DNA of 16,864 nt from IMG/VR virus record IMGVR_UViG_3300028920_000354; one strand, 5' to 3'. Origin of the DNA: a virus. Position 1 is the stretch's first letter; the number at the start of each line of letters is the position of its first letter. The position numbers and the translations under genes were made by a program. The notes under the pieces were generated by a model. The model made no database searches, was not told the origin of the DNA, and worked only from the letters and a program-made list of their open reading frames with translations. Of the stretch, positions 7,692-7,736 are shown one piece after another.

Positions 7692-7736
7692 GTACTCCTT
7701 GTCATTACCCTACAAAAATTTCAATACAAGGAGTAC
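7692..7736 (+). promoter_or_regulatory. 10-bp perfect inverted repeat whose downstream arm contains the RBS of the gene at 7740
   Basis: GTACTCCTTG at 7692-7701 and CAAGGAGTAC at 7727-7736, 25 nt apart. Confidence 0.35.

Follow-up and report, generated by a model that had tools for sequence, protein, structure and literature searches.

A gene for a small helical protein in a 16,864-nucleotide (nt) stretch of viral DNA (IMG/VR virus record IMGVR_UViG_3300028920_000354; hereafter the window, with position 1 its first letter) is preceded by a short leader open reading frame (ORF) that contains an in-frame TAG codon and ends beside a hairpin burying the Shine-Dalgarno (SD) sequence of the gene. 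From a computational analysis of this element (site 1, 7692-7736) and of a second SD-burying hairpin ahead of an RNA ligase gene (site 2, 13757-13797), we conclude that site 1 is probably a leader-peptide translational attenuator that senses an amber stop, with site 2 a separate device that has a predicted promoter inside its hairpin. Both hairpins are real, and each buries a ribosome-binding site. The features around site 1 are as follows.

7595-7623, + strand: predicted sigma-70-type promoter, TTGACT-17 nt-TATATT (10/12 in a consensus scan), with the transcription start expected at about 7630
7630-7689, + strand: leader ORF of 19 codons, beginning with ATG and reading MKRIRSTPVFR, TAG (7663-7665), IKIDKPP, TAA (7687-7689)
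7692-7702, + strand: left arm (anti-SD) of the site-1 hairpin, its first base 2 nt past the leader stop codon
7703-7725, + strand: loop of the site-1 hairpin, 23 nt, A/C-rich
7726-7736, + strand: right arm of the site-1 hairpin with the SD AAGGAG (7728-7733), SD pairing probability 0.96 to 1.00
7740-8171, + strand: putatively regulated gene, encoding a 143-residue helical protein with 55 homologues
7753-7759, + strand: UUAGGGA, codons 5-7 of that gene, paired in the minimum-energy fold
8143-8448, + strand: gene for a 101-residue protein of Pth2 fold (AlphaFold2 pLDDT 97), overlapping the end of the 143-residue gene
8861-8931, + strand: tRNA with anticodon CUA, an amber suppressor (ARAGORN; 57 bits with the Rfam tRNA model)

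Two Hairpins Bury Ribosome-Binding Sites

At site 1, GTACTCCTTGT (7692-7702) is the perfect complement of ACAAGGAGTAC (7726-7736), giving an 11-bp stem with a 23-nt loop, and the ATG of the downstream gene at 7740 lies 3' of the right arm. At site 2, TACCCTCCGTTAATA (13757-13771) pairs with TATTAACGGAGGGTA (13783-13797) over 15 perfect base pairs around an 11-nt loop, and as RNA the stem reaches 18 pairs through one G-U pair. A first-pass annotation, made from the sequence alone, had reported two perfect inverted repeats with the SD in the downstream arm, and we find both, each 1 bp longer than described. Its judgment that such repeats are unlikely by chance holds for the set, with three perfect inverted repeats of at least 11 bp (loops of 3-40 nt) in the window against a mean of 0.13 in 300 dinucleotide shuffles and none of at least 14 bp in any of the 300; site 1 on its own is only marginally unusual.

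The predicted RNA folds of 81-nt segments have energies of -22.4 kcal/mol at site 1 (z = -4.1) and -26.6 kcal/mol at site 2 (z = -6.3; 200 dinucleotide shuffles each). Among the 27 + strand gene starts in the window, SD pairing probability exceeds 0.95 at these two sites only, setting aside a third high value at 8933, which arises because that region overlaps a tRNA. In the minimum-energy fold of site 1, UUAGGGA (7753-7759) also pairs with UCCCUAA (7683-7689, the Pro and stop codons of the leader) in an outer helix that encloses the start codon as well. The corresponding TTAGGG in codons 5-7 is present in L014 and L015 and was seen in these close relatives only.

Two other explanations for inverted repeats at these positions were considered and dropped. 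We found no further SD-overlapping inverted repeat of at least 10 bp in 34 kb, a tRNA and auxiliary-gene region of the 95-kb metagenome contig to which the window belongs (ENA ERZ27252253, k141_2989609), which speaks against a repeated element spread through the genome. Intrinsic (Rho-independent) terminators do not fit either, as no T-run follows either hairpin on either strand and neither hairpin appears in a terminator scan. In Rfam searches only tRNAs reach the gathering score, and the matches near both sites are subthreshold ones to generic hairpin models (e.g., microRNA precursors). The third perfect 11-bp inverted repeat (TCCAGGGTGGT, 25 nt, ACCACCCTGGA; 8198-8244) lies inside the gene for the Pth2-like protein, where it spans the codons for a conserved QGGHAVAQ, and may have arisen by chance.

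The Site-1 Hairpin Recurs in Homologous Loci with Covarying Arms

We compared 20 loci from jumbo-phage contigs, consisting of the window and 19 others that encode members of the same protein family: L015 (gene product 59% identical), L021-L031 (IMG/VR), L033 and L034 (genome bins), and L035-L039 (individual assemblies). In 19 of the 20, a hairpin sequesters the SD core of the small-protein gene (median pairing probability 0.99 over the 20, with 19 at 0.72 or above), against a median SD pairing of 0.47 at 76 control gene starts with an SD in the same loci (Mann-Whitney p = 7e-8). The arm sequences differ in nearly every locus, yet each left arm complements its own SD region; L015 has the same left arm as the window and a diverged loop. 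In an alignment-free test, cognate duplexes between upstream and SD regions average -15.3 kcal/mol, compared with -9.0 kcal/mol for noncognate ones (permutation p <= 1e-5). Stems are often only 8-13 bp long, and the loops, of about 15 to about 30 nt, are A/C-rich, unstructured, and different in sequence. Arms that vary and yet remain complementary are covarying, which favors a structured RNA over a DNA site bound by protein. The gating hairpin that the first-pass annotation placed over the ribosome-binding site is thus well supported at site 1 by its presence in 19 of 20 loci with compensatory arm changes, and, judged by comparison of these sequences, site 1 is a conserved regulatory RNA.

L034, on a contig labelled Absconditabacterales, is the sole family member with neither an SD hairpin nor a TAG leader nor a nearby tRNA with anticodon CUA (tRNA-CUA); its start codon is uncertain.

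This pattern bears on two readings of the repeats that involve no translational switch of the kind we favor. Operators for a dimeric repressor, offered by the first-pass annotation as an alternative, are quite unlikely: at site 1 the arms differ completely between loci, one arm is always the SD, and the loop length varies about twofold, from about 15 to about 30 nt, all of which fits RNA pairing. It is the free variation of the arms that makes an operator unlikely at this site, and the idea survives as a minor possibility at site 2, where its merits are considered below. Processing by RNase III or temperature sensing is the least probable of the explanations we weighed. The 18-pair stem of site 2 nears the length of an RNase III substrate; the stems of the family are often much shorter, and cleavage within the stem would remove the SD. 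RNA thermometers of the ROSE and fourU types use weak, mismatched stems, and the perfect 11- to 15-bp stems found here, at -16 to -27 kcal/mol, make the temperature trigger suggested in the first-pass annotation unlikely.

A Leader with an In-Frame TAG Codon Precedes the Hairpin

Upstream of the site-1 hairpin, the block CTTGACT...TATATTATAAT around the predicted promoter is conserved between the window and L015 amid diverged intergenic DNA. The motif CCNCCCTAA recurs immediately 5' of the hairpins, and translation of the upstream regions shows it to be part of a leader. In the window, the in-frame UAG of this leader is codon 12, the Pro-Pro codons occupy 7681-7686, and the ORF ends in Lys-Pro-Pro-UAA; the leader of L015 is colinear with it (MIPIRSQPIFM-TAG-IVVKKPP-TAA). 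A start codon followed by 2-11 sense codons and an in-frame TAG is found in 19 of the 20 loci (all but L034), and 18 of these 19 leaders have an SD of their own 5-10 nt before an ATG, GTG, or TTG, the window copy being the one without. In most loci the frame continues beyond the TAG for a further 3-12 codons, the first usually for Ile or Val. The TAG is followed by a purine in 18 of 19 leaders and then by a T in 17.

Pro-Pro is encoded in frame in 17 of the 19 leaders. In 11 a stop codon follows it directly, its last base no more than about 6 nt from where the left arm begins; six other loci have the Pro-Pro codons inside the left arm itself. A search of 180.7 kb for the leader pattern (SD, start codon, a TAG as first stop no more than 12 codons on, and Pro-Pro among the 15 codons after it) returned 17 matches at the expected place and 1 elsewhere. 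The Pro codons differ at the third position (CCT, CCA, CCG, and CCC), as expected under coding constraint, and the leader peptides are similar in related loci, as in the window and L015 or in L027 and L038 (MTYH*V and VTYH*V). Of the triggers that the first-pass annotation had listed, a ribosome translating upstream is therefore the one we favor, with the correction that the frame is a dedicated 19-codon TAG leader and not the upstream gene.

Two loci depart from the common layout. The leader of L026 (1324-1710) has no stop before the main ORF and is in frame with it, and in L028 (925 onward) the Pth2-like gene itself starts MKKT-TAG-I, with the TAG at codon 5. Readthrough of the TAG would directly yield the protein in both, so that, as far as the reading frames indicate, the same dependence on readthrough would be kept.

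L030 (1231-1360) has, some 130 nt ahead of its first leader, another that starts ATGAAGTAGATT. The frame opened by readthrough of its TAG crosses a terminator-like hairpin (CCCAACGG...CTGTTGGG, then a T-run), and this leader may be a transcription-attenuation version of the same putative amber sensor.

A Suppressor tRNA Gene Lies Close to the Leader

In 15 of the 20 loci (the window and 14 others), a gene for tRNA-CUA lies within about 1.3 kb, nearly always downstream and on the same strand, and the Pth2-like gene (encoding about 100 residues) sits between it and the family gene. In the Lak megaphages (Prevotella phages Lak-A1 and Lak-B7), too, homologues of the Pth2-like protein are encoded close to a tRNA with a suppressor-type anticodon, here a different one and about 0.7 kb upstream:

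L040 1736-1808 and L041 1841-1913 (Lak-A1 and Lak-B7): tRNA with anticodon UUA, expected to decode the stop codon UAA

This arrangement suggests a wider link between the Pth2-like family and suppressor tRNAs.

The tRNA-CUA gene of the window belongs to an array of seven tRNA genes (8861-8931, 9785-9938, 10096-10169, 10425-10498, 11368-11440, and 12862-12934). The 20.7 kb of L001 hold 21 tRNA genes (L001 17032-20507 in the array), which include the CUA suppressor and a duplicated tRNA-Lys. The best promoter match of the window (TTGACT-17 nt-TATAAT with TG, 11/12) is found at 9546-9574, ahead of the tRNA-Lys genes, and a terminator-like hairpin (16-pair stem, T-run) lies between that promoter and those genes at 9689-9724.

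Proposed Readthrough Switch at Site 1

An mRNA from the predicted promoter at 7595-7623 would carry, in order, the leader ORF, the SD-burying hairpin, and the 143-residue gene. Where release factor 1 terminates at the UAG, the ribosome would leave 26 nt short of the hairpin, and the SD would stay paired and the gene silent. Where the phage's own tRNA(CUA), whose gene lies 0.7 kb downstream, reads the UAG as sense, translation would proceed to the Pro-Pro-stop. Because Pro-Pro-stop is a poor termination context, the ribosome is predicted to linger there with its leading edge on the left arm, so that the hairpin would melt and a second ribosome could initiate at 7740. Synthesis of the helical protein and of the overlapping Pth2-like hydrolase would thus have to wait until amber suppression works.

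The geometry of the leaders agrees with this scheme: 12-31 nt separate the TAG from the left arm in the loci with Pro-Pro (26 nt in the window), and 65 nt do so in L024, which has no Pro-Pro. We simulated ribosome occupancy by forcing the covered bases to be unpaired, with either the TAG or the final stop (or post-Pro-Pro) codon in the ribosomal A site; in the first position the ribosome stays well clear of the hairpin, and in the second it covers the left arm. The SD core is unpaired with a median probability of 0.01 both in free mRNA and when the TAG is occupied, rising to 0.56 when the ribosome sits at Pro-Pro (Wilcoxon p = 4e-6); the values of the window for these three states are 0.00, 0.00, and 0.91, respectively. 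Termination at the leader stop followed by reinitiation at the ATG was considered as another route and dropped, the gap of 50-65 nt (loci with Pro-Pro-stop) being long for reinitiation.

The same data bear on two further explanations. Both hairpins could impose a constant, unswitched down-regulation that keeps potentially harmful proteins scarce, the long loop perhaps serving as a waiting place for ribosomes. Stable stems that bury the SD, long A/C-rich loops without structure, and the lack of an identifiable trans-acting trigger at site 2 are all compatible with this; left unexplained is why 19 of 20 loci have a leader, with an SD of its own in 18 of the 19, that combines an in-frame TAG with, in most, Pro-Pro at the foot of the left arm, as is the linkage to tRNA-CUA, and we regard it as unlikely. 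In a variant of the readthrough switch that we consider very unlikely, the input to the leader would be the activity of host release factor 1 (e.g., inactivation of this factor by the phage) and not the suppressor tRNA itself. As readthrough is a competition between release factor 1 and tRNA-CUA, sequence alone cannot separate these inputs; in the simulation, however, ribosomes stuck at the UAG for want of a suppressor are too distant to open the hairpin, and the tight linkage to tRNA-CUA points to the tRNA.

Site 2 Encloses a Predicted Promoter Within Its Hairpin

Site 2, at the RNA ligase gene, has the following features.

13755-13783, + strand: predicted promoter, TTTACC-17 nt-TACAAT with a TGT extension (consensus scan), its -10 element in the hairpin loop and the transcription start expected at about 13790
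13757-13771, + strand: left arm of the site-2 hairpin, overlapping the -35 hexamer and spacer
13783-13797, + strand: right arm of the site-2 hairpin with the SD GGAGGG (13790-13795), SD pairing probability 1.00
13803-14471, + strand: RNA ligase gene (PF09414, Pfam E = 2e-28), with its ATG at 13803 and closest homologues at most 58% identical

The promoter belongs to a recurrent class: the + strand of the 34 kb has four copies of the pattern TT[GT]AC[TC]-N14-TGTTANAAT (window coordinates -4722, 9546, 13755, and 20472), all of them between genes (0 of 300 shuffles). The predicted transcript from about 13790 would begin GGAGGGUAGAGCAAUG and would lack the left arm, leaving the SD free. Transcripts reading through from upstream would fold the 18-pair stem (about -27 kcal/mol) over the SD and would be translationally silent. 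Between the stop of the upstream gene (13744) and the hairpin we found no terminator-like site, the nearest + strand candidates lying inside that gene.

Site 2 would thereby resemble genes e, soc, 49, and I-TevI of phage T4, in which the SD is buried in early transcripts and a late promoter lies inside the hairpin. Like them it has its SD in the 3' arm, and the predicted promoter within the hairpin would give a transcript without the 5' arm; it differs in that this promoter is sigma-70-like with an extended -10 element and not of the T4 late type. This arrangement, known from T4 e, soc, and 49 (a later internal promoter yielding a short transcript with a free SD, and long early transcripts that are silent), is our preferred reading for site 2, given the predicted recurrent-class promoter in its hairpin, and it gains from a possible, weaker third case upstream of the NAD synthase gene. 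As an account of both sites it is improbable. The consensus scan gives no promoter inside the site-1 hairpin, the 19 loops show by eye no common -10-like motif (no motif search was made), and the conserved site-1 promoter stands upstream of the whole leader, so that site 1 does not fit the T4 scheme.

The possible third case is found in L020 at 4901-4975 (window -4722 to -4648), where a TTTACT-N14-TGTTATAAT promoter is followed by a 9-bp inverted repeat whose 3' arm lies over the ATG of the NAD synthase gene. The site-2 arrangement may recur here in weaker form; the fold z is only -1.2.

The site-2 repeat spans the -35 hexamer to about +8, so a protein bound there would block RNA polymerase, and this is the point in favor of the operator reading discussed above. 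Perfect 15-bp half-sites 11 bp apart would be unusual for an operator, and the G-U pair that extends the stem counts in RNA only. The first-pass annotation had further proposed one mechanism shared by both sites, which our results do not support: site 2 has no leader of the site-1 kind, its hairpin is missing from RNA ligase homologues, and a predicted promoter of a recurrent class lies within that hairpin. We regard site 2 as a separate device, specific to this lineage.

Observations That Weigh Against the Proposed Reading

A number of observations count against our reading of the two sites. The window leader has no SD, and its translation therefore depends on the predicted leaderless start at 7630. 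In six loci the Pro-Pro codons are the CCUCC anti-SD itself, so Pro-Pro may there follow in part from pairing. Several loci open weakly in the ribosome simulation (0.24-0.34). The tRNA-CUA gene was not seen in the available DNA of 5 of the 20 loci, one of these contigs being 812 nt long. The genes in the 34 kb fit the standard code, with 6 of 50 ending in TAG. MAFFT and RNAalifold, applied to ten leader-hairpin sequences, gave no consensus structure; as the arms share no sequence and cannot be aligned, this is a limit of the method and not evidence against the hairpin. RNA ligase homologues (42-58% identity) have no comparable hairpin, which leaves site 2 without comparative support, and the two other contigs that carry the site-2 hairpin are identical in sequence and therefore add no information.

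No in-frame TAG is evident in the genes of the 34 kb, a region of tRNA and auxiliary genes. Several of the RNA ligase homologues are coupled directly to the preceding gene, at a spacing of only 2-3 nt.

The Helical and Pth2-Like Proteins

The 143-residue protein belongs to an undescribed family with the near-invariant motif YRHxHIAYC[EL]LRGRTxEQIE in alignments of its homologues. It has no sequence match in Pfam, PHROG, or the PDB, and tblastn found no match to the family among 50,697 GenBank phage records. Its AlphaFold2 model is all-helical (pLDDT 84) and has no fold match. The model of the Pth2-like protein matches archaeal Pth2 and human Bit1 in Foldseek (2zv3, 1q7s, 3erj, and 1xty; TM 0.71-0.80, E down to 3e-6), and its sequence also matches PHROG 3668 ("hydrolase"). 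The two proteins are fused in P0042 and L029. In the proposed switch both would be candidate effectors, made after readthrough.

Genomic Setting

Nearly all genes of the window lie on the + strand. Six single bases (16, 6593, 7411, 8360, 9136, and 11727), none of them in the hairpins or the leader, distinguish the window from the public contig (L001 and L020), and it has no near match among the 50,697 GenBank phage records. As relatives of the studied genes lie mostly on contigs of 50 to 430 kb, many of them from IMG/VR, the source is most likely a jumbo phage.

The region encodes several other genes of interest. A 938-residue protein with major vault protein shoulder and repeat domains (2610-5426) is unusual in a phage. 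A cluster for NAD metabolism (window 378-860 and 5488-6204; L020 4967-9795) comprises NAD synthase, isochorismatase, NAPRTase, a nucleotidyltransferase, NADAR, and a Nudix protein with an NrtR-type winged helix, and a GGDEF protein is encoded in the region as well. Downstream of site 2, a cluster for RNA repair and ribosome rescue (13803-16262) contains the RNA ligase, whose ORF ends in TAG, an RF-1-domain (ArfB-like) protein (14733-15092), HAD_SAK_2, and an MmcB-like protein.

Relation to Known Attenuators and Switches

In ermC and ermB, cat, and cmlA, arrest of a ribosome at a defined leader codon masks the 5' arm of a hairpin and so frees the SD, the signal being a ribosome-bound antibiotic. 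Site 1 likewise has a short leader ORF and an SD-burying hairpin whose 5' arm is within reach of a ribosome at the proposed arrest codon; it differs in that the UAG must be read through before the ribosome reaches the proposed arrest site at Pro-Pro-stop. The conserved in-frame TAG suggests an input other than an antibiotic, and site 1, so understood, adds a new kind of input, stop-codon readthrough, to leader-peptide attenuation.

Prolines before a stop codon slow termination in TnaC, in SsrA tagging after C-terminal prolines, and in uORF2 of cytomegalovirus gp48. The site-1 leader peptide also ends in prolines before a stop, and we predict stalling there; TnaC differs in that it controls Rho-dependent transcription termination and senses tryptophan. 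The gene for release factor 2, prfB, is autoregulated by an early in-frame UGA through a +1 frameshift within the gene. There, as at site 1, an early stop codon reports how efficiently that stop is recognized, the difference being that site 1 would use readthrough in a separate leader acting via a hairpin; L026 and the Pth2-like gene of L028 carry the TAG in their own frame.

Synthetic switches follow the same logic. In these, a TAG engineered into a leader peptide makes expression dependent on amber suppression (PMC6412442), and downstream expression needs leader translation past the UAG, as proposed for site 1. These switches act on transcription via tna or trp leaders, whereas site 1 is natural and phage-encoded and would act on translation. 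Large recoded phages are described, in the available parts of two accounts, as carrying "code change modules" of tRNAs, tRNA synthetases, release factors, and ribozymes, including theta ribozymes (bioRxiv 10.1101/2021.08.26.457843; PMC10879173). As in those large phages, the region around site 1 groups a suppressor tRNA with genes related to translation, and it differs in its leader, no leader or sensor being described for such modules in those parts of the two accounts (bioRxiv 10.1101/2021.08.26.457843; PMC10879173).

A Possible Sensor of the Phage Code Switch

How phages with recoded stop codons time and check the switch from the host code to their own is an open question, and the trigger is called poorly understood in one recent paper (PMC10879173). 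We lean, with modest confidence, toward the view that jumbo phages with a suppressor tRNA carry a natural sensor of their own code switch, by which the helical and Pth2-like proteins are made once UAG has become a sense codon. If so, the leader would be a checkpoint built in beside the suppressor tRNA to report amber readthrough, the first natural attenuator found with stop-codon suppression as its signal, and the natural counterpart of the TAG-in-leader switches built for genetic-code expansion. This reading names two candidate effectors, the helical family and the Pth2-like hydrolase, and in metagenomes the leader may serve as a marker of suppressor-tRNA modules. Experiments on the mechanism and timing of code switching during infection would also gain a direct point of entry.

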